Assembly: GCA_035510695.1 (NCBI GenBank)
Contig: DATKGO010000062.1
Span: 1-56,707, forward strand
Reading direction: 5' to 3'
Source of the DNA: Patescibacteria group bacterium
GTDB taxonomy: Bacteria; Patescibacteriota; Microgenomatia; Levybacterales; UBA12049
Length of the DNA stretch: 56,707 bases
The notes under the pieces are model-generated. The model saw only the letters and a program-made list of their open reading frames with translations, was not told the DNA's origin and made no database searches. A program made the position numbers and the translations under genes. Below are positions 8,894-56,618 of the stretch, piece by piece (within the stretch, counting starts at the first letter, position 1; every line of letters starts with the position of its first letter).

Positions 8894-9370
8894 TTATTTT
8901 TCCCAAGTATTGAGAGTTTGGCGCATGATGGCGAATTCGCCAATGTGATATGCATTATGGTCGCAGACCAGCAGGAATTCACGAATATAGGTTTGTCCGT
9001 CACCGAAAGGAACCTTAGTTGACAAATTAATTTTTTTATCCATCAGCAGCTTCTCCAATTCTTTTTTGTCCTGCAAATATTGTTCTATGGTTTTATCCCA
9101 TTCTTTTTGAGTTGCTTTGGCCTTCGCTTCCGGCCAATAATCTTTCGGCCATTCCAATTCCTTGTAATTTGGGTTAAGCATGAAATCCAAAATATCATGT
9201 TGGGTTCGCCGGATATGCTCTAAAAGATTCCAGGAAGAATATGTACCGTTGGGGAAGATCGTATTCATTGCTTCTTGCGGAAACTCTTTAACAGCTTCTT
9301 CAAATGACATATGTGCCTGTCCGCCTTTAAGCAGCTGCAAAATACTTTCACGGACTACATTTTCATCCAT
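8894..9370 (-). CDS. DinB family protein
   Basis: 158 aa helical-bundle protein with histidines spaced as in DinB_2 (HIRRTQHD, NAYHIGEF). Confidence 0.7.
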   Translation of the reverse strand: MDENVVRESILQLLKGGQAHMSFEEAVKEFPQEAMNTIFPNGTYSSWNLLEHIRRTQHDILDFMLNPNYKELEWPKDYWPEAKAKATQKEWDKTIEQYLQDKKELEKLLMDKKINLSTKVPFGDGQTYIREFLLVCDHNAYHIGEFAIMRQTLNTWEK

Positions 9371-9960: not shown

Positions 9961-10559
9961 ATTTTATTCTCAATCAATTGCTTACATTGGTTCTTGCATA
10001 CGGTTATCCGATTGTCGGGTTGTCGGTGGTCATAAGTTCAATCGGTTTCCCATTTCCCACGCCTATAATTTTGTTGGCAGCGGGCGCTTTAGCGGCATTG
10101 GGAGAACTTAATTTTTATGTTTTATTTTTTATTGTATTATGCTGCAGTGTCTTAGGCGATATTACGGATTACTGGTTGGGAGCGAAATTAGGTTATGCTA
10201 TTTTGCGACGTTTTAATAAACATAAGTCTTCGATGAAATTGTTTGGGAAGGGAAGAAAATATTTTTTTCGTTGGTCGGGAATTACCATTTTTTTAACACG
10301 TTGGCTATTTTCTATAATTGCATCGGTAATTAGTCTACTTGCCGGTACTACGGGATATCCTTTCGGTAAGTTTTTACTTTTTGATATTCCGGGGCAAATT
10401 ATATCCGCATTTGTTTTTTTGGGTTTGGGTTATTTATTTAGTTCCGAATGGCAAAACATTTGGACATACGTGCAAAGTGTATCTTTGTTAATGTCGGGAA
10501 TTCTTGTGGGGACTATTTTAATCATATTTGGTATTAAACAGTATAATCGGAAAAAGTAG
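9957..10559 (+). CDS. DedA/VTT-domain membrane protein (second paralogue)
   Basis: GYPIVGLSVVISSIGFPFPTPIILLAAG and LGDITDYWLG. Confidence 0.65.
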   Translation: MNFILNQLLTLVLAYGYPIVGLSVVISSIGFPFPTPIILLAAGALAALGELNFYVLFFIVLCCSVLGDITDYWLGAKLGYAILRRFNKHKSSMKLFGKGRKYFFRWSGITIFLTRWLFSIIASVISLLAGTTGYPFGKFLLFDIPGQIISAFVFLGLGYLFSSEWQNIWTYVQSVSLLMSGILVGTILIIFGIKQYNRKK

Positions 10560-51262: not shown

Positions 51263-52135
51263 ATGCAAAGATTTTTCCGTTTATTAAGTTTTTTAGCTAT
51301 TTTGCTGGCTCCGGTTTTTGTTCCGGTATTAGCGCATGCGCAAAGTGTTACTACGGCAGTTCCGGTTGTCAGTCAAACAACTGTACTATCGCGTAATGCA
51401 GCGAATTTGAATAAAACTGGAACTACAGCTTTGTCTGTATTGCACACTCGTTGTGACACGGAAATTACAAATCGGATTAGCAGTTTAAATAATTCGACTG
51501 CGAAAATTAACGCCATTAATAAGTTGACCGAAAGTCAGAAACAACAATATTTGACCTCGATTCAAACTAATGTTTCCGGTTTGACAACTTTAAAGGCGAA
51601 ATGCGATGCTGATACGGATGCTAGTACTTTGACAGCGGATACGAAATCTGTTTTTTCCACTTTTAGAGTTTATGCCGTATTTATGCCGCAAACGTCATTG
51701 TTAGTAGCAGCTGACAAATTAAGTACGACAGCCGGACAGCTTTCGGATTTAGCGACGAAATTCCAAACACGTTTATCCGAAGCCCAAAGTGCTAATGTAA
51801 CTACTCTGCAAAGTTTGTTAACCGATATGCAGACACAAATTACTACTGCGCAAACGCAGGCGAATAGTGTTATCTCACAGGTTAGTCCAGTGCAGCCGAC
51901 TACTTATAATGCAAATCCGGCGGTAACCGGTGGAGTATTTACGTCGTCCAGGACTAATTTGAAGACAGGTACGCAAGCTGTACAAAAAGCAGTACAAGAC
52001 GCTATGCAGATTGTTGCATCATTAAGGCTGTTAGGCATTGGAGTAAAAACAGGAACAAATAGCGCTACAACCGGTATGGTTCCAAGTGTGATTATTCCGT
52101 CAGTAGTCCAAACGTCATCGCAATCGGCGAAATAA
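51263..52135 (+). CDS. hypothetical secreted S/T/Q-rich helical protein
   Basis: Signal peptide ending AHAQS. GGAGAGGGGG SD-like tract upstream. Confidence 0.55.
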   Translation: MQRFFRLLSFLAILLAPVFVPVLAHAQSVTTAVPVVSQTTVLSRNAANLNKTGTTALSVLHTRCDTEITNRISSLNNSTAKINAINKLTESQKQQYLTSIQTNVSGLTTLKAKCDADTDASTLTADTKSVFSTFRVYAVFMPQTSLLVAADKLSTTAGQLSDLATKFQTRLSEAQSANVTTLQSLLTDMQTQITTAQTQANSVISQVSPVQPTTYNANPAVTGGVFTSSRTNLKTGTQAVQKAVQDAMQIVASLRLLGIGVKTGTNSATTGMVPSVIIPSVVQTSSQSAK

Positions 52136-52256: not shown

Positions 52257-52541
52257 ATGAATACGATTAGATTGTCAGCAACTTCTGCTAGAAATAATTT
52301 TTTTAATGTACTTAATCAAGTTGCAGCAGGTACGCAAGTCATTATTGAAAAAGACAATAAAGAAATTGCCATGCTCATTCCCAAAACAACCAAAACCGAT
52401 TGGAAAGGTTTGCGAAAAGCATTAAATGCCACTAGAGGCATTCTGAAAGATTATGATCCGGAAGATAATCCTTTGAGGAGAAAAGGCGCGTCTGAATATT
52501 TAGGAAAATGGGATAAAGGTTTACTTTTGAATGATAAATGA
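52257..52541 (+). CDS. type II antitoxin, Phd/YefM-like
   Basis: LSATSARNNFFNVLNQVAAGTQVIIEKDNKEIAMLIP. Stop overlaps the VapC start. Confidence 0.75.
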   Translation: MNTIRLSATSARNNFFNVLNQVAAGTQVIIEKDNKEIAMLIPKTTKTDWKGLRKALNATRGILKDYDPEDNPLRRKGASEYLGKWDKGLLLNDK

Positions 52542-52921
52542 AACTCATTGTTGACACCAGTATTCTCATTGATAATTTGCGAGGAGGAAAAATTTTCGCT
52601 ACAATTCTCGATGATTTAGAGCGCGAAAATGCGGAATTGATAGTACCCACAATTGTTTTTTTTGAACTATTCTCGGGGAGAAGTACGAGAGCACCGGAAA
52701 TTATTAAAGAAATCAACATGCTAATGAAAAATTTTCAAAGGGTTGATCTCACCGAGAGGATCGCGAAACGTGCTGGAGAATTATATAGGGATATAAATAA
52801 AGATCTTGGAGCTGCAGATTATGTGATTTCCGCTTCGGCTTTAGAACTAAATGCCACGGTAGTTACACTTAATAAAAAGCACTTTGAACAAATTACGAAC
52901 CTTAATGTATATCCGTTGTAG
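52538..52921 (+). CDS. vapC: type II toxin, PIN-domain VapC
   Basis: MKLIVDTSILID...AADYVISASALELNATVVTLNKKHF. Confidence 0.85.
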   Translation: MKLIVDTSILIDNLRGGKIFATILDDLERENAELIVPTIVFFELFSGRSTRAPEIIKEINMLMKNFQRVDLTERIAKRAGELYRDINKDLGAADYVISASALELNATVVTLNKKHFEQITNLNVYPL

Positions 52922-52931
52922 ATTAGATCAT

Positions 52932-53132
52932 ATGAAGTTTGCCAGAAGAGTTGCGCCTACTATTTTATACAACAGAGAGAAAAAGATTCTGCTTCAATTA
53001 CGTACCAAAGACGCTTCATATTATCCGGGTTTTTGGGGATTTTTCAGCGAAGAAGAAATAAAATCTTTAAAAATGAATCCCTACATCGCGGTAGTTATCA
53101 AGGGTGTTTTTCAATATCTGCAAGATCTTTAA
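52932..53132 (+). pseudogene. truncated NUDIX hydrolase fragment
   Basis: ILYNREKKILLQLRTKDASYYPGFWGFF matches the strand preceding a Nudix box, but the GX5EX7REUXEEXGU box itself is absent. Confidence 0.35.
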
Positions 53133-53167: not shown

Positions 53168-53590
53168 TTACTGTTGAAGGATTTTAAAAAATTCGCTTGG
53201 AGTAACTATATTAACTCTTCGGAAAAGACTGCCTAGTTTTTTACGTAGTGGACCGTCGCCTGTTACTAAATAATCTGATTTAGCGCTAACAGCTGTTGCG
53301 ATAATATAATCATCCTCTGTATGCGTAGCTACTCCCTGTAAATTCACTGTTATTTGTGTCAATGTAGCTTCATTTTGTAATAAGTCTATAAAAGCTTCTA
53401 TTTGTGACAAAGAAAGATGTTTTTGAAAATATGGTTTCTGAAGCGTTCTATATAATTCATCGATAATATATTGCGAGGTTATTAGTTTGAATTTTCCTTC
53501 CCGCCACTGGTTAATTATTTGACCAGGAGGAGTAAAAGAATTCACCGTTCCCGAAGCTAGCGTATTCGTATCCAAAACTGCAGAAATCAT
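53168..53590 (-). CDS. PIN-domain toxin (TIGR00305-like)
   Basis: MISAVLDTNTLASG...DDYIIATAVSAKSDYLVTGD. Confidence 0.75.
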   Translation of the reverse strand: MISAVLDTNTLASGTVNSFTPPGQIINQWREGKFKLITSQYIIDELYRTLQKPYFQKHLSLSQIEAFIDLLQNEATLTQITVNLQGVATHTEDDYIIATAVSAKSDYLVTGDGPLRKKLGSLFRRVNIVTPSEFFKILQQ

Positions 53591-53593
53591 TTC

Positions 53594-53896
53594 TTATTTG
53601 TCACTATTTTCTGATCGCATTTCTGTTCTTACTTCGTTAAGAGCTTTCTTTATTTCCTGTTCTACTTCTTCATCGGGTACATCTTTAAATGCTTCTCGTA
53701 TACTATCCAAGGTTTTAAATCGTTCTTTTCTCTGTTCATCTAATTGAGTGAAACGTTTTAAATCCTCAACCGAGATGACAGCCGCAACAGGAATACCACT
53801 TTTTTCAATAATAACTTTACTATTTTCTTTGTATATAGTATTAAGAATATTGCTCCAATTTTGTCTCACTTGAGATGCTTGCATAACCTTTGTCAT
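53594..53896 (-). CDS. type II antitoxin, Phd/YefM-like
   Basis: ASQVRQNWSNILNTIYKENSKVIIEKSGIPVAAVISVEDLKRF. Confidence 0.7.
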   Translation of the reverse strand: MTKVMQASQVRQNWSNILNTIYKENSKVIIEKSGIPVAAVISVEDLKRFTQLDEQRKERFKTLDSIREAFKDVPDEEVEQEIKKALNEVRTEMRSENSDK

Positions 53897-53905
53897 ATTA
53901 CGTAC

Positions 53906-53934
53906 AATATAGTACGTTTTTGGACAAAAGTCAA
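53906..53934 (-). promoter_or_regulatory. promoter TTGACT-17-TATATT, with an ACGTAC/GTACGT inverted repeat bracketing the -10
   Basis: Minus-strand -35 at 53929-53934 and -10 at 53906-53911. Inverted-repeat arms at 53900-53905 and 53912-53917. Confidence 0.65.
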
Positions 53935-53944
53935 GGGCAACAAA

Positions 53945-54093
53945 AAATAAGCCCCCTGTATCAAGCTATTCTTGATGTTCAAACAAGGAGCGGCGCACTT
54001 AGTGCCCCCGATGAAGCTCTATTTGAACTAACAGTAAAGACTTTCGGGGAACTCTATGCATATTATGCCTTAAATTCAGAGAAAGTTGAATAG
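53945..54093 (+). repeat. TA-island spacer repeat, copy 1 (remnant of a small ORF, no ATG)
   Basis: Shares GCCCCCGATGAAGCTCTATTTGAACTA (54004-54030) with copy 2, and roughly 75% identity by eye downstream. Confidence 0.75.
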
Positions 54094-54130
54094 CCTTGCA
54101 GTTATATTTCTAGGTGGAGAATAAATAAAT

Positions 54131-54421
54131 TTACGATTCCGTAAAAGTAGCAGGCCATTTTCGCGAAGTATGTACGACTGCTAAAATTTGAATTTCTTTT
54201 GCGATTCTATAAACGATAATATAAGGAAGATGAGTAATAACAAGTTCTCTTGTTTGCTCAACACGACCTTCTCGTCCGGCAGCTGGATATAACTCGAGTT
54301 TTTTAATGGATTTTCGAATAGTAGTAAAAATTTGTAAAGCGGTTCGAGGATTATCTTCAGCTATATAGTCAACAAGGGAATCTAAATCACGCTCCGCAGC
54401 TGCTAACCAAAGTATACTCAT
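54131..54421 (-). CDS. parE: type II toxin, ParE/RelE family
   Basis: AERDLDSLVDYIAEDNPRTA...YIIVYRIAKEIQILAVVHTSRKWP. Confidence 0.8.
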   Translation of the reverse strand: MSILWLAAAERDLDSLVDYIAEDNPRTALQIFTTIRKSIKKLELYPAAGREGRVEQTRELVITHLPYIIVYRIAKEIQILAVVHTSRKWPATFTES

Positions 54422-54702
54422 ATATCAAGTTTTTTCTTTAGTCGCTTCTCCTGGCGATCCATAACTTTATCGTGAAGAATAAACTTTGCAGTTGGCTCTT
54501 CTACTTGACTCAGACGTTCTTTAATAAGAGCAAGTTGCCATTGTTGCACATCAAGATATTGCTTAAGGGCTTCGTTAAACACCCAATTGCGTGATCTACC
54601 AACGCTATTTGCGATATTATCGAGTTCTTCAAGAATTCCTTGTGGTATTCGAGCATGTAAGCTCTCTGTTTGAGGTAACGACTTGTTGATTAGTGTAGTC
54701 AT
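54418..54702 (-). CDS. ribbon-helix-helix (CopG/ParD-like) antitoxin
   Basis: LHARIPQGILEELDNIANSVGRSRNWVFNEALKQYL. Overlaps the toxin start. Confidence 0.75.
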   Translation of the reverse strand: MTTLINKSLPQTESLHARIPQGILEELDNIANSVGRSRNWVFNEALKQYLDVQQWQLALIKERLSQVEEPTAKFILHDKVMDRQEKRLKKKLDI

Positions 54703-54839
54703 ATGTAGTCATACTATCATACGGTTGTTTATAATGCAATAGACATAAATAAAAATTGAGTTTTAACCGGAGCTCAAGTCTCTTCGATACCATCATAATT
54801 TTATGACTAATATGAAAAGGTAAGTACAAAATCACTAAA

Positions 54840-54992
54840 TTCTACAATTAGCTTGTTATATCAACGTATTCGATCATTTGATGATACGAGCGTCGCATCG
54901 GGCGCCCCCGATGAAGCTCTATTTGAACTAGCGATTAAAACCTTCGGGAATTTACTTGCATAGTATACCTTAAATTCGCGTAAAACTGAATA
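54840..54992 (+). repeat. TA-island spacer repeat, copy 2 (degraded, contains in-frame stops)
   Basis: 54904-54930 is identical to 54004-54030. 54846-54864 matches 55824-55842 at 18 of 19 positions. Confidence 0.75.
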
Positions 54993-55034
54993 AGCACATA
55001 GAAGATACAATTAGCAGTTTATTTAGCAAGTATG

Positions 55035-55415
55035 TTAATTTGATGGATTTAACACATCAATATCCTTCATTGGGAAATGCTTAGTGTTTAAAGAGACCAA
55101 AGTGAGATTATTCACATTTGCTGTTGCTGCAATTAGGCAATCGGTTAAACTGAGATTTTTTAATTTTTTTGTATATTGCTGCCAATAAAGTCCAGCAATC
55201 TTTGCTACTTTAGCCTCCACATCAAAAATAATATGTTGCTGAAGATAATCTTCAGTCACTACTAATTCTGCTGGGAAGATATTTTTATATATTTCAGCAA
55301 TGGATATAACTGATATACTGAGTGGTGCTTCTTCTTTTAGAGAGAGGACTTTATCTATTATTTCTCTTTTTCCTCGCAATACCCAAATCAATACATCCGT
55401 ATCTAAAAGATACAT
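55035..55415 (-). CDS. vapC: type II toxin, PIN-domain VapC
   Basis: MYLLDTDVLIWVLRG...LTDCLIAATANVNNLTLVSLNTKHF. Confidence 0.85.
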   Translation of the reverse strand: MYLLDTDVLIWVLRGKREIIDKVLSLKEEAPLSISVISIAEIYKNIFPAELVVTEDYLQQHIIFDVEAKVAKIAGLYWQQYTKKLKNLSLTDCLIAATANVNNLTLVSLNTKHFPMKDIDVLNPSN

Positions 55416-55417
55416 AG

Positions 55418-55696
55418 TTAAAATGACCTTTCATCGGACAAGCGATTTTTGGTAACCCAGTTAACGACATCATTTTTTGTACTCCATTCAGGATGATTCT
55501 GAACAGTAATGACACCTGCAGCCTTTCTTAATACTTTTTCATACATATCTTTATCAAATATAGAGGTGCGAGTTATTTGCGCAATAGAGATATCTCTTTT
55601 TTCATCACGAATAAGTACACGAGTTCCTTTCATTACGCGCTCTAAATACTGGGATATATTACTTCTTAAATCACTTACAGATACTGTTACTGTCAT
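55418..55696 (-). CDS. type II antitoxin, Phd/YefM-like
   Basis: VSDLRSNISQYLERVMKGTRVLIRDEKRDISIAQI. Confidence 0.75.
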   Translation of the reverse strand: MTVTVSVSDLRSNISQYLERVMKGTRVLIRDEKRDISIAQITRTSIFDKDMYEKVLRKAAGVITVQNHPEWSTKNDVVNWVTKNRLSDERSF

Positions 55697-55702
55697 AAAA
55701 TT

Positions 55703-55731
55703 ATATTAGTACGTTATGTACATATTGTCAA
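55703..55731 (-). promoter_or_regulatory. consensus promoter TTGACA-17-TAATAT, 6 nt upstream of ATG 55696
   Basis: Minus-strand -35 at 55726-55731 and -10 at 55703-55708. The spacer contains ATGTACAT and ACGTAC. Confidence 0.7.
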
Positions 55732-55794
55732 GTATCTATAGCGATATGAGTTCTAATCTCTTCGCTATCTTGATAATTTTGTGTGTATTTATAG

Positions 55795-56028
55795 ATGAAA
55801 GAAGGAGAAGCCCTAAATTATATAATTAGCCTGTTATATCAATCTCGATCGTTTGGCAATATCATTGCCTCATCGGGTGCCCCTGATGCACATTCTTTTG
55901 AACACTTTCTGCCTTGGGTAGACAAGATTATGCTTGCATACCAAGGAGAAAACGATACTAATAGCGATCAGCTATTGCCTCAGGGTTCTTCGTTCTCTAG
56001 GGGATATTATACGAAAAAAGTGAACTAA
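55795..56028 (+). CDS. small hypothetical protein; the intact member of the TA-island spacer repeat family (copy 3)
   Basis: ATG-initiated 77-aa ORF. LLYQ...SSGAPDAHSFEHF parallels PLYQ...LSAPDEALFEL of copy 1. Confidence 0.3.
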   Translation: MKEGEALNYIISLLYQSRSFGNIIASSGAPDAHSFEHFLPWVDKIMLAYQGENDTNSDQLLPQGSSFSRGYYTKKVN

Positions 56029-56050
56029 AGGAAAGACGAGGAAAATATTG

Positions 56051-56257
56051 TTATTCTCCTAGAGGAAGTTTTATCTTTATTTCCAGCGCTCGAGCGATCT
56101 TGTTTAAGATTTCGCCTCTCGCTTTTGGGTCACCACGCTCAACACGGGCATAATAATTTGCGTTAATTCCTGCTTTTTTTGCTACTTCGGCTTGTGTTAA
56201 GCCAGCCTTTTCACGAGCTTCCTTAAAAATTTTTGCTATCTCTTCTTTGAATCCCAT
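56051..56257 (-). CDS. XRE family helix-turn-helix transcriptional regulator
   Basis: AREKAGLTQAEVAKKAGINANYYARVERG. Confidence 0.8.
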   Translation of the reverse strand: MGFKEEIAKIFKEAREKAGLTQAEVAKKAGINANYYARVERGDPKARGEILNKIARALEIKIKLPLGE

Positions 56258-56342: not shown

Positions 56343-56618
56343 ATGAACAATGATAATGTACTTCCGGAGGATATAACCTGGGAAGAAATACAGAAATATC
56401 TAGACAATGATCCTTACCAAGAATTTCTGAAACAAATACCACTTTTAGTTTATAAAATGGCGACTGATAAAAACAATCGGCCAAAAGTAATTGAGGCTGT
56501 AATGCAAGCCTTACAAGAAAGAGATCCACAAAACGCCACAGAAGCATACGCATCAAAAATGGCCGATAGAATGGAGGAGATGGCGAGAATGGTTTTAGCA
56601 ACAAGACAGAAGAAATAA
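56343..56618 (+). CDS. hypothetical protein divergent from the XRE regulator
   Basis: 91-aa ORF with leaderless-type promoter geometry. No recognisable motif. Confidence 0.45.
   Translation: MNNDNVLPEDITWEEIQKYLDNDPYQEFLKQIPLLVYKMATDKNNRPKVIEAVMQALQERDPQNATEAYASKMADRMEEMARMVLATRQKK

Follow-up and report, generated by a model that had tools for sequence, protein, structure and literature searches.

The 56,707-nucleotide (nt) stretch analysed here, hereafter the window, comprises positions 1 to 56,707 of contig DATKGO010000062.1 of a Patescibacteria group bacterium (assembly GCA_035510695.1, Levybacterales). Near its right-hand end, between 53.1 and 56.3 kilobases (kb), open reading frame (ORF) calls and Pfam matches place three unrelated minus-strand type II toxin-antitoxin (TA) pairs in alternation with three related segments of the plus strand. 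An earlier note, made from the sequence alone, had described these pairs and recurring segments, and all of its features were recovered at the same positions. The segments, or spacers, are probably worn attP-type junctions of a large serine recombinase (LSR), and the array a tandem stack of degenerate elements that lack an integrase and lie beside a larger element; under the same interpretation, the mobile elements of this LSR family insert at tRNA gene 3' ends in Microgenomates-type bacteria of the Candidate Phyla Radiation (CPR).

All three TA modules are co-oriented and consist, as type II systems do, of adjacent small toxin and antitoxin genes of known families. Every operon has its own promoter-like site, the strong ones being those of units 0 and 2. 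Each spacer is divided below into a left half (P arm), a centre marked by a slash, a right half (P' arm) and a tail. Read from left to right the layout is TA unit 0 (-), P/P', TA unit 1 (-), P/P', TA unit 2 (-), P/P' with tail, an XRE gene (-), an ORF of 91 amino acids (aa) and the window end, which falls 0.7 kb into the last, rightmost element:

53168-53590, minus: TA unit 0, PIN_3 toxin (Pfam PIN_3, 6.8e-16)
53594-53896, minus: TA unit 0, Phd/YefM-type antitoxin (Pfam PhdYeFM, 7.8e-7)
53934-53906, minus: strong promoter-like site of TA unit 0
53944-54003, plus: copy 1 P arm, putative relic of the last LSR codons (KISPLYQAILDVQT...; nhmmer match, collinear with LSR C-termini)
54002-54006, plus: copy 1 centre GT/GCC, with P' arm (54004-54028) and a short tail to the stop at 54091-54093
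54131-54421, minus: TA unit 1 cargo, ParE toxin (Pfam ParE, 3.2e-18)
54418-54702, minus: TA unit 1 cargo, RHH antitoxin (Pfam RHH_1, 3.2e-5)
54770-54903, plus: copy 2 P arm, putative LSR 3' relic (KSLNSTISLLYQRIRSFDDTSVASGA; homology to copy 3 reaches left to 54770)
54902-54992, plus: copy 2 centre GC/GCC, P' arm (54904-54928) and short tail with an in-frame TAG
55035-55415, minus: TA unit 2 cargo, PIN toxin (Pfam PIN, 2e-11)
55418-55696, minus: TA unit 2 cargo, Phd-like antitoxin (Pfam PhdYeFM, 2.1e-4, under the Pfam cut-off)
55731-55703, minus: strong promoter-like site of TA unit 2
55817-55878, plus: copy 3 P arm, putative LSR 3' relic (IISLLYQSRSF...SSG; nhmmer match)
55877-56028, plus: copy 3 centre GT/GCC, P' arm (55879-55903) and conserved 50-codon tail (SGAPD..FEHFLPW..IMLAYQ..YYTKKVN)
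56051-56257, minus: XRE-type HTH_3 regulator, convergent with the copy 3 tail (Pfam, 1.2e-14)
56343-56618, plus: 91-aa ORF, in the place where related loci have a conserved ~80-aa gene after XRE (gene order)

Spacer copies and the end of a large serine recombinase gene

Copies 1 and 2 share the 27-mer GCCCCCGATGAAGCTCTATTTGAACTA, which occurs exactly twice (54004 and 54904; none expected from 100 shuffles), and their homology continues beyond it at 75% across 105 nt. Copies 2 and 3 have AATTAGCYTGTTATATCAA in common and remain homologous for about 130 nt to the left of the centre, with 78% identity between 54770-54805 and 55748-55783. As had been noticed earlier, copy 3 is an ATG-started ORF of 77 aa (55795-56028, plus strand) and copy 1 has no ATG. 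Copy 1 sits in a TTG-started ORF of 67 aa (53890-54093), and the in-frame interruption of copy 2 amounts to one TAG (54961-54963). The 7-bp hairpin CATCGGG-NNCC-CCYGATG reported in copy 2 also forms in copy 3, with one G-T pair, and is absent from copy 1; it straddles the crossover centre and is the inner pseudo-symmetry of the site. The partner that each copy most resembles changes at this centre. In the P arm copy 2 is 74% identical to copy 3 and copy 1 is 55% identical to copy 2, in the P' arm copies 1 and 2 agree at 96% and copies 2 and 3 at 70%, and in the tail the corresponding values are 68% and 42%. Copy 2 is therefore a hybrid junction, like copy 3 on its left and like copy 1 on its right, as is expected between two neighbouring units.

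The metagenomic origin of the sequence and the regular spacing of the copies (900 and ~975 bp) could suggest an assembly artefact, namely a collapsed or chimeric repeat, and duplication by assembly error was one of the outcomes that the earlier note had named as fatal to its own proposal. The copies differ by 25-60% and flank different genes, so that they are not an assembly duplication, and an independent Logan assembly, contig L013 (run SRR8676592, ~1.9 kb, reached through ParE), reproduces positions 53964-55881 at 100% identity. We regard an artefact as extremely improbable. L013 ends inside the copy 1 P arm on one side and exactly at the copy 3 centre (..CATCGGGTGCC) on the other; these end points may be due to differences between strains at the junctions or just to shallow coverage. 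The collection of L013 has a record of neither the XRE nor the PIN_3 protein. The contig was also considered as a captured circular form (1918 nt, against 1878 nt between centres), a reading that was dropped for want of overlapping ends. GTDB species genomes do not contain the exact 27-mer, exact-protein look-ups with the 77-aa ORF, the 91-aa ORF, the XRE protein and the PIN_3 toxin returned no match, and Pfam gave none for the small ORFs of the three spacers.

The identity of the left halves emerges from related loci, designated L below. The AATTAGCCCGATATATCAA box of the window copies directly abuts the 3' ends of two tRNA-Leu genes in L030, and a scan of all loci placed it beside tRNA-Leu, tRNA-Gly and tRNA-Phe genes too. 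Its translation, ..NTxISPIYQSIRxFE.., is the C-terminus of 510-530-aa ORFs in L025, L029, L030 and L050; these full LSR ORFs continue in frame past ISPIYQSIR and into an antisense tRNA. The left half had also been read as a small protein's N-terminal part and as a promoter, and both readings were dropped after full LSR ORFs had been seen to cross it. A DNA profile built from 30 foreign LSR 3' ends of metagenome loci, with no window sequence among them, was run with nhmmer on the whole window and matched it only three times, at the left halves (54836-54907, E = 1.1e-8; 53944-54006, E = 6.5e-7; 55817-55882, E = 1.9e-6), each match finishing at the centre. The P arm of copy 2 is in addition 52% identical over 27 aa to the C-terminus of the L025 LSR (tblastn). 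These matches show the three left halves to be LSR 3' ends, corresponding to the last ~20-25 codons. A by-eye similarity of 55716-55829 to LSR residues further upstream was not confirmed by tblastn and is not claimed.

The window itself has no visible integrase, as had been stated earlier. The recombinase linked to the segment elsewhere is an LSR, both in six genome loci and in 80 metagenome loci, the latter returned by a scan whose query was an alignment of four LSRs and which confirmed at least 418 relatives. Among the matches listed, 50 of 62 complete LSR genes have an ORF that ends inside an antisense tRNA gene, and the tRNA targets cover at least 20 anticodons (Leu, Glu, Lys, Gly, Ser, Phe, Ala, Arg, Asp, Met, Val and His). 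Among PDB structures, the A118/LI, SPbeta and TP901-1 integrases match the family profile. Only one relevant contig was found among IMG/VR viral contigs, and it is cut 1.3 kb upstream of the LSR. The loci L096 and L097 agree at 97.6% over a stretch exceeding 11.5 kb, and perfectly over the final 113 nt, which end in ...TTGTGCC; from there on they enter tRNA-Leu genes that differ (anticodons tag and cag), with flanks that are unrelated. These comparisons show that the LSR family is linked to tRNA genes and that it is mobile.

A distant relative of the family, in L046, has the Pfam domains Resolvase, Recombinase and Zn_ribbon_recom. A perfect 110-nt inverted repeat (135-244 and 1771-1880) brackets this distantly related LSR gene at the contig start, beside a tRNA-Lys gene; the segment could be invertible, or the repeat could have arisen during assembly.

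The precedent that the earlier note had invoked for the array was the integron. Sedentary chromosomal integrons are rich in TA cassettes and resemble the window in that unrelated TA modules are separated by a recurring recombination site; an integron-like cassette array, with attC-type spacers, a tyrosine integrase and TA cassettes, would account for co-oriented TA modules alternating with a segment that carries a short hairpin. The attC-like imperfect palindrome sought in the spacers, which in integrons spans 57-141 bp in the order R''-L''/L'-R' with conserved core sites, does not form, however, as single-stranded folds of both strands gave several short, local hairpins differing from copy to copy and not one long imperfect palindrome. 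The RYYYAAC/GTTRRRY core pair is not evident in the alignment, which displays coding-type conservation instead, and no IntI-type tyrosine recombinase with an attI site and a Pc promoter was found among the ORFs of 50-56.7 kb. Integron cassettes are co-oriented and mostly promoterless; the TA modules are co-oriented too but have promoter-like sites of their own, strong in units 0 and 2. The site would be double-stranded, of LSR type and overlapping a coding sequence, its left half being the coding end of a serine recombinase gene whose relatives are the recombinases linked to it in other loci. The probability that we assign to an integron is close to nil. What stands of the earlier proposal is repeated insertion at one target, in the form of site-specific recombination junctions between unrelated TA modules, in the window as in the L030 array; the attC precedent does not.

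Attachment-site geometry and the predicted exchange of the tail

The motif T(T/C)GAAC is found 19 nt after GCC in every tail-side site, all three window copies (TTGAAC) included. The same motif, which in tRNAs is the T-loop, is found there 14 nt after the equivalent GCN, and the difference of 19 against 14 was seen in every pair examined. Serine integrases have a known signature of this kind, in which the zinc-ribbon-domain (ZD) motif of attB lies 5 bp further inward than that of attP (Rutherford et al. 2013, PMC3783163); the tail-side arm would therefore be the P' half-site and the tRNA the B' half-site. By the same comparison the end of the integrase gene is the predicted P half-site, and the three window copies are shown to have the geometry of complete attP-type (P/P') sites, lying in direct order with the centre G(T/C)/GCC. 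Over its inner 10 nt the P' arm is similar to the acceptor end of the targeted tRNA, for instance in L099 with tRNA-Arg and in L001-type loci with tRNA-Phe, and homology between loci begins sharply at nGT GCC in 38 loci.

P arm and tail are always read in the same frame, from which it follows that excision must fuse a ~50-aa tail to the integrase and that integration must replace it with tRNA-antisense codons. The predicted attP thus lies inside the integrase ORF, and integration would alter the encoded protein. In the free (attP) form, integrase codons would occupy the P arm to the left of the centre, with the P' arm and a ~50-codon in-frame tail to the right. Upon integration the integrase ORF would run into the antisense tRNA and stop within a few codons to a few dozen, so that the tail would be left behind at the opposite element end, next to an XRE regulator gene convergent with it. 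One locus, L063, has an intact LSR with a 45-aa in-frame divergent tail and attP spacing.

The tail is well represented outside the window. A search of the 77-aa ORF against relatives, as the earlier note had advised, retrieved C-terminal homologues in metagenomes and GTDB loci; the metagenomic ones are short and match only the C-terminal two-thirds (FEHFLPWIxKIMLAYQ...YYTKKVN), and ORFs of this type, 50-77 aa long, are called in many metagenomes. A profile of tails from 30 other loci matches 55877-56035 with E = 1.7e-36. A convergent XRE gene comes after the tail in the contigs of the metagenome homologues and in 36 GTDB loci, mostly metagenome-assembled genomes (MAGs) of Microgenomates-type CPR bacteria; the pairing was counted in 25 of the 41 loci analysed and is also present in L099 and L114. 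Genes to the left of the tail are unrelated between loci, and tail conservation begins abruptly at nGT GCC CCT GAK. About 17 of 38 stranded genomic tails have a stop just upstream and no start codon after it. The tail nevertheless evolves as coding sequence under purifying selection, with codon-position entropies of 0.90/0.74/1.21 and a ratio of nonsynonymous to synonymous polymorphism (pN/pS) of 0.07-0.44 in 14 pairs (~0.2 in the entry for the copy 3 tail). Selection in spite of absent start codons suggests that the tail acts as part of the excised-form enzyme, and its expression may be confined to the C-terminus of that integrase.

We conclude that the 77-aa ORF (55795-56028) is a chimaera, in which the last integrase codons are fused in frame to the tail. 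Intact junction ORFs resembling it are P0016, P0041 and P0059, and the junction ORF of copy 1 is 31% identical over 45 aa, ungapped, to the P/P' junction ORF of L030. The AlphaFold model of the 77-aa ORF is of low confidence (pLDDT 60, pTM 0.27) and has two helices, with a possible amphipathic helix over FLPW..IMLAYQ. In a further protein, P0020 (102 aa), a Rep-like segment (..NGNAHLHILI..) precedes the tail.

The chimaeric structure bears on the second proposal of the earlier note, that a small gene was repeatedly duplicated together with incoming modules. The 77-aa ORF would then be a genuine small-protein gene, a third TA component or a regulator, duplicated with each TA pair, and copies 1 and 2 would be decaying paralogues. 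The intact copy 3 ORF, the purifying selection on the tail, the many metagenomic calls of 50-77-aa ORFs and the pairing with an XRE gene are all compatible with such a gene. The N-terminal third of the ORF is, however, homologous to the last LSR codons, almost half of the genomic copies lack any start codon (the ~17 of 38 mentioned above), and homology between loci begins sharply at the recombination centre. Moreover, the neighbours of the segment elsewhere are unrelated cargo genes (different TA families, Fic, AbiEii, PLD nuclease and helicases), which indicates that it is not itself a dedicated TA partner. A duplicated small gene is accordingly judged very unlikely.

Several CPR-type loci (L016, L018, L021, L023-L026, L030, L040 and others) are found in MAG records titled uncultured Gammaproteobacteria, Methanosarcina sp., Limnocylindrales and Brocadiaceae, which suggests that those records are mislabelled or contaminated bins.

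Related elements and the proposed assembly of the stack

Whole elements, with the tail (and XRE) on the left and an LSR whose P arm adjoins a tRNA on the right, were found in L025 (5.9 kb), L029 (9.8 kb) and L099 (8 kb); L016, L048 and L114 have the same arrangement, cut by the end of the locus. Units with both element ends and no integrase also occur. Their genes are of addiction, defence or regulatory type: Fic in L014 (1.4 kb), a helicase with an AAA ATPase in L020, and a winged helix-turn-helix (MarR-type)/phosphoribosyltransferase-like protein in L046. A 344-aa gene of L014 and L030 was at one point taken for a tyrosine integrase and proved to be the Fic protein. In L030, tRNA-Leu(gag) is followed by a tail, a minus-strand ParE-like TA pair, a P/P' junction, a minus-strand Fic gene and a P arm that adjoins tRNA-Leu(cag). 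This locus is an array equivalent to that of the window, anchored at its tRNA target.

By analogy, each window unit between two centres would be composed of a short tail, a minus-strand TA operon and a ~60-130-nt integrase 3' relic, the integrase genes of the stacked units having been deleted down to their last ~25 codons. These mini-elements would be stacked in tandem against the left end (tail, XRE, 91-aa ORF) of a larger element extending past the window. The tail side of copy 3 is the left end of this next, larger element, and TA unit 0 (53168-53896) is the cargo of the leftmost, eroded unit. The 91-aa ORF has weak similarity to the conserved ~80-aa gene of related loci (38% over 29 aa, pairwise E = 1e-4), and the right-hand element would by comparison end with an LSR next to a tRNA. 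The TA genes are cargo and probably help the relics to persist.

That the window units were assembled by LSR recombination, and in what order, we infer from their junctions, and the recombination rules of LSRs have to be considered here. Canonical LSRs (PMC3783163, PMC5499577) recombine attP with attB, or attL with attR in the presence of a recombination directionality factor (RDF). Three routes to a run of attP-type junctions can be envisaged. A non-canonical attP x attR event could have pushed older units off the tRNA, as proposed for tycheposons; co-integrate circles bearing several attP sites could have integrated; or an attR x attL deletion could have taken place between elements in neighbouring tRNA genes.

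Alternatively, the spacers could be LSR attachment-site relics and the array the product of homologous recombination, unequal crossing-over or cargo replacement within one element. In support of this, canonical LSR rules (PMC3783163) give no tandem attP junctions, the copies are old (55-96% identity depending on the segment), and one layout is common to all three units. Against it, the change of closest partner falls exactly at the centre, the TA cargos come from unrelated families, the tRNA-anchored L030 has a P/P' junction between unrelated cargos, and in L129 an intact LSR abuts a truncated tail remnant. We consider this route unlikely, though it is the most plausible of the alternatives. 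In L129, T4SS-like genes (T4SS, type IV secretion system) lie ~2.4 kb downstream of the LSR, and no XRE match was found.

Several points weigh against a stack of LSR elements. The window has no LSR gene, tRNA gene or left-end site, so that the link of its units to the LSR rests on homology; Rfam searches of 52-56.7 kb gave sub-threshold chance matches only. Under the canonical rules cited above, successive integrations do not directly yield a run of attP junctions. Copies 1 and 2 have tails that are only distantly related to the canonical one, as the tail profile matches only their first 27 nt (E = 0.9 and 6). No full-length LSR with a canonical tail was found among the 66 tail-bearing clusters obtained with the tail profile from 1.84 billion representatives, whose clustering at 50% identity could conceal LSR-tail fusions; all 66 matches are of at most 169 aa, save one repetitive 400-aa protein, probably spurious (P0061, matched six times by the profile). 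In L022, two tail-side copies (8974-9171 and 10004-10174), 79% identical and homologous from the centre onward, flank a plus-strand Phd-ParE pair with no P arm before the second copy, an arrangement that does not fit the P/P' stack model. Finally, a compact T4SS-like module that follows tail and XRE in eight loci (L018, L027, L028, L034, L036, L041, L001 and L005) was never seen joined to an LSR. Its operon encodes TrbC/VirB2-like and TrbL/VirB6 proteins, a 269-aa protein, VirB4, an M23 peptidase and a 262-aa protein; neither a relaxase nor a coupling protein was found within 10 kb of it, and the genes beyond it vary (MacB/FtsX permease, HsdM).

The stack of LSR elements, which we still favour, can be extended into a more speculative scheme, possible but rather doubtful, where the att site of the LSR itself is a state switch between tailed and tail-less isoforms. 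The free element would encode a tailed integrase and the integrated one a tail-less enzyme ending in tRNA-antisense codons, with the tail setting the direction or activity of recombination, either together with a separate directionality factor or without one. The TA mini-elements (tail, TA operon and P arm, with a complete attP kept) would be non-autonomous cassettes moved in trans. The whole would amount to an integron-like cassette economy in CPR bacteria, built on a serine recombinase and tRNA targets. If true, this would be a natural example of state-dependent integrase isoforms, bearing on the control of direction in serine integrases.

Known systems and the margins of the island

The array is probably a set of stacked, degraded integrative elements kept by TA modules, a known kind of object with new features. 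The arrays of integrative and conjugative elements (ICEs) and cis-mobilizable elements (CIMEs) of Streptococcus thermophilus are an example of such tandem accretion. Accretion of this type (ICE/CIME; tandem islands of the Islander database, PMC4383910; Prochlorococcus tycheposon islands, bioRxiv 10.1101/2020.12.28.424599) resembles the window in direct order, att junctions, hybrid junctions, loss of some integrases, degradation of older units and defence or addiction cargo, and resembles its family in anchoring at tRNA 3' ends. It differs in relying on tyrosine integrases, as opposed to an LSR, and in having shared-core repeats where the window has putative attP-type (P/P') junctions; and the window units, unlike those elements, are reduced to one TA operon and a site. 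Serine recombinases were not known to target tRNA genes according to Islander (PMC4383910), and only 27 of 937 tycheposon-type elements carry an LSR (bioRxiv 10.1101/2020.12.28.424599).

Domain content and site geometry place the integrase family among the LSRs. The integrases A118/LI (of a Listeria phage), SPbeta SprA, phiC31 and Bxb1, for which site recognition has been solved, have the same set of Resolvase, Recombinase and zinc ribbon domains, short pseudo-symmetric sites and the 5-bp ZD shift. In contrast to them, the target here would be the acceptor/T-arm end of many tRNA genes, and attP would lie in the coding sequence of the integrase itself, with a ~50-aa C-terminal tail replaced on integration. 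An attP within its own gene and a C-terminus changed on integration are found in IntP of Myxococcus phage Mx8, which is a tyrosine recombinase. The self-disrupting, or 'suicidal', integrases of SSV type are described as exclusively archaeal (PMC8371274). Both resemble the present family in having the site inside the integrase ORF, a tRNA target and different proteins in the integrated and free forms; both are tyrosine recombinases, and the SSV gene is split in two large halves whereas here only a ~50-codon tail would be exchanged. The present LSR family, a serine recombinase of bacterial hosts, is thus like the Mx8/SSV type in its proposed mechanism but not a member of it. The literature searched describes serine recombinases as not known at tRNA genes and self-overlapping att sites as a feature of archaeal tyrosine recombinases.

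With these comparisons a puzzling TA "cassette array" becomes a probable graveyard of stacked integrative elements held by addiction modules. The abundant LSR family, with its at least 418 relatives, its tRNA targets and its predicted self-overlapping attP, is a more interesting lead than the stack. If the interpretation is true, the family would supply genome engineering with a set of LSRs that are directed at tRNA genes and whose attP/attB pairs can be read, and would help to follow horizontal gene flow and the formation of islands in CPR genomes.

To the left of the stack lies a fourth TA pair, on the opposite strand:

52257-52541, plus: Phd-like antitoxin (94 aa; Pfam)
52538-52921, plus: PIN toxin (127 aa; Pfam), clustering with the PIN toxin at 55035-55415

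This pair (52257-52921) may belong to the same island; no att relic adjoins it, and the P-arm and tail profiles have no further matches in the window. Between it and TA unit 0, an ORF at 52930-53132 (plus strand) resembles by eye the N-terminal part of a NUDIX hydrolase, cut off right before TA unit 0, and had no Pfam match. NUDIX-like genes (cluster c10) recur next to att relics in L019, L023, L045, L021/L022 and L048. The left edge of the stack is eroded, and it is there that the NUDIX-like fragment and the fourth TA pair are located. Further left, between dnaB and the TA island, positions 51263-52135 (plus strand) encode a 290-aa Ser/Thr/Gln-rich protein of no Pfam family, with a signal-peptide-like N-terminus.

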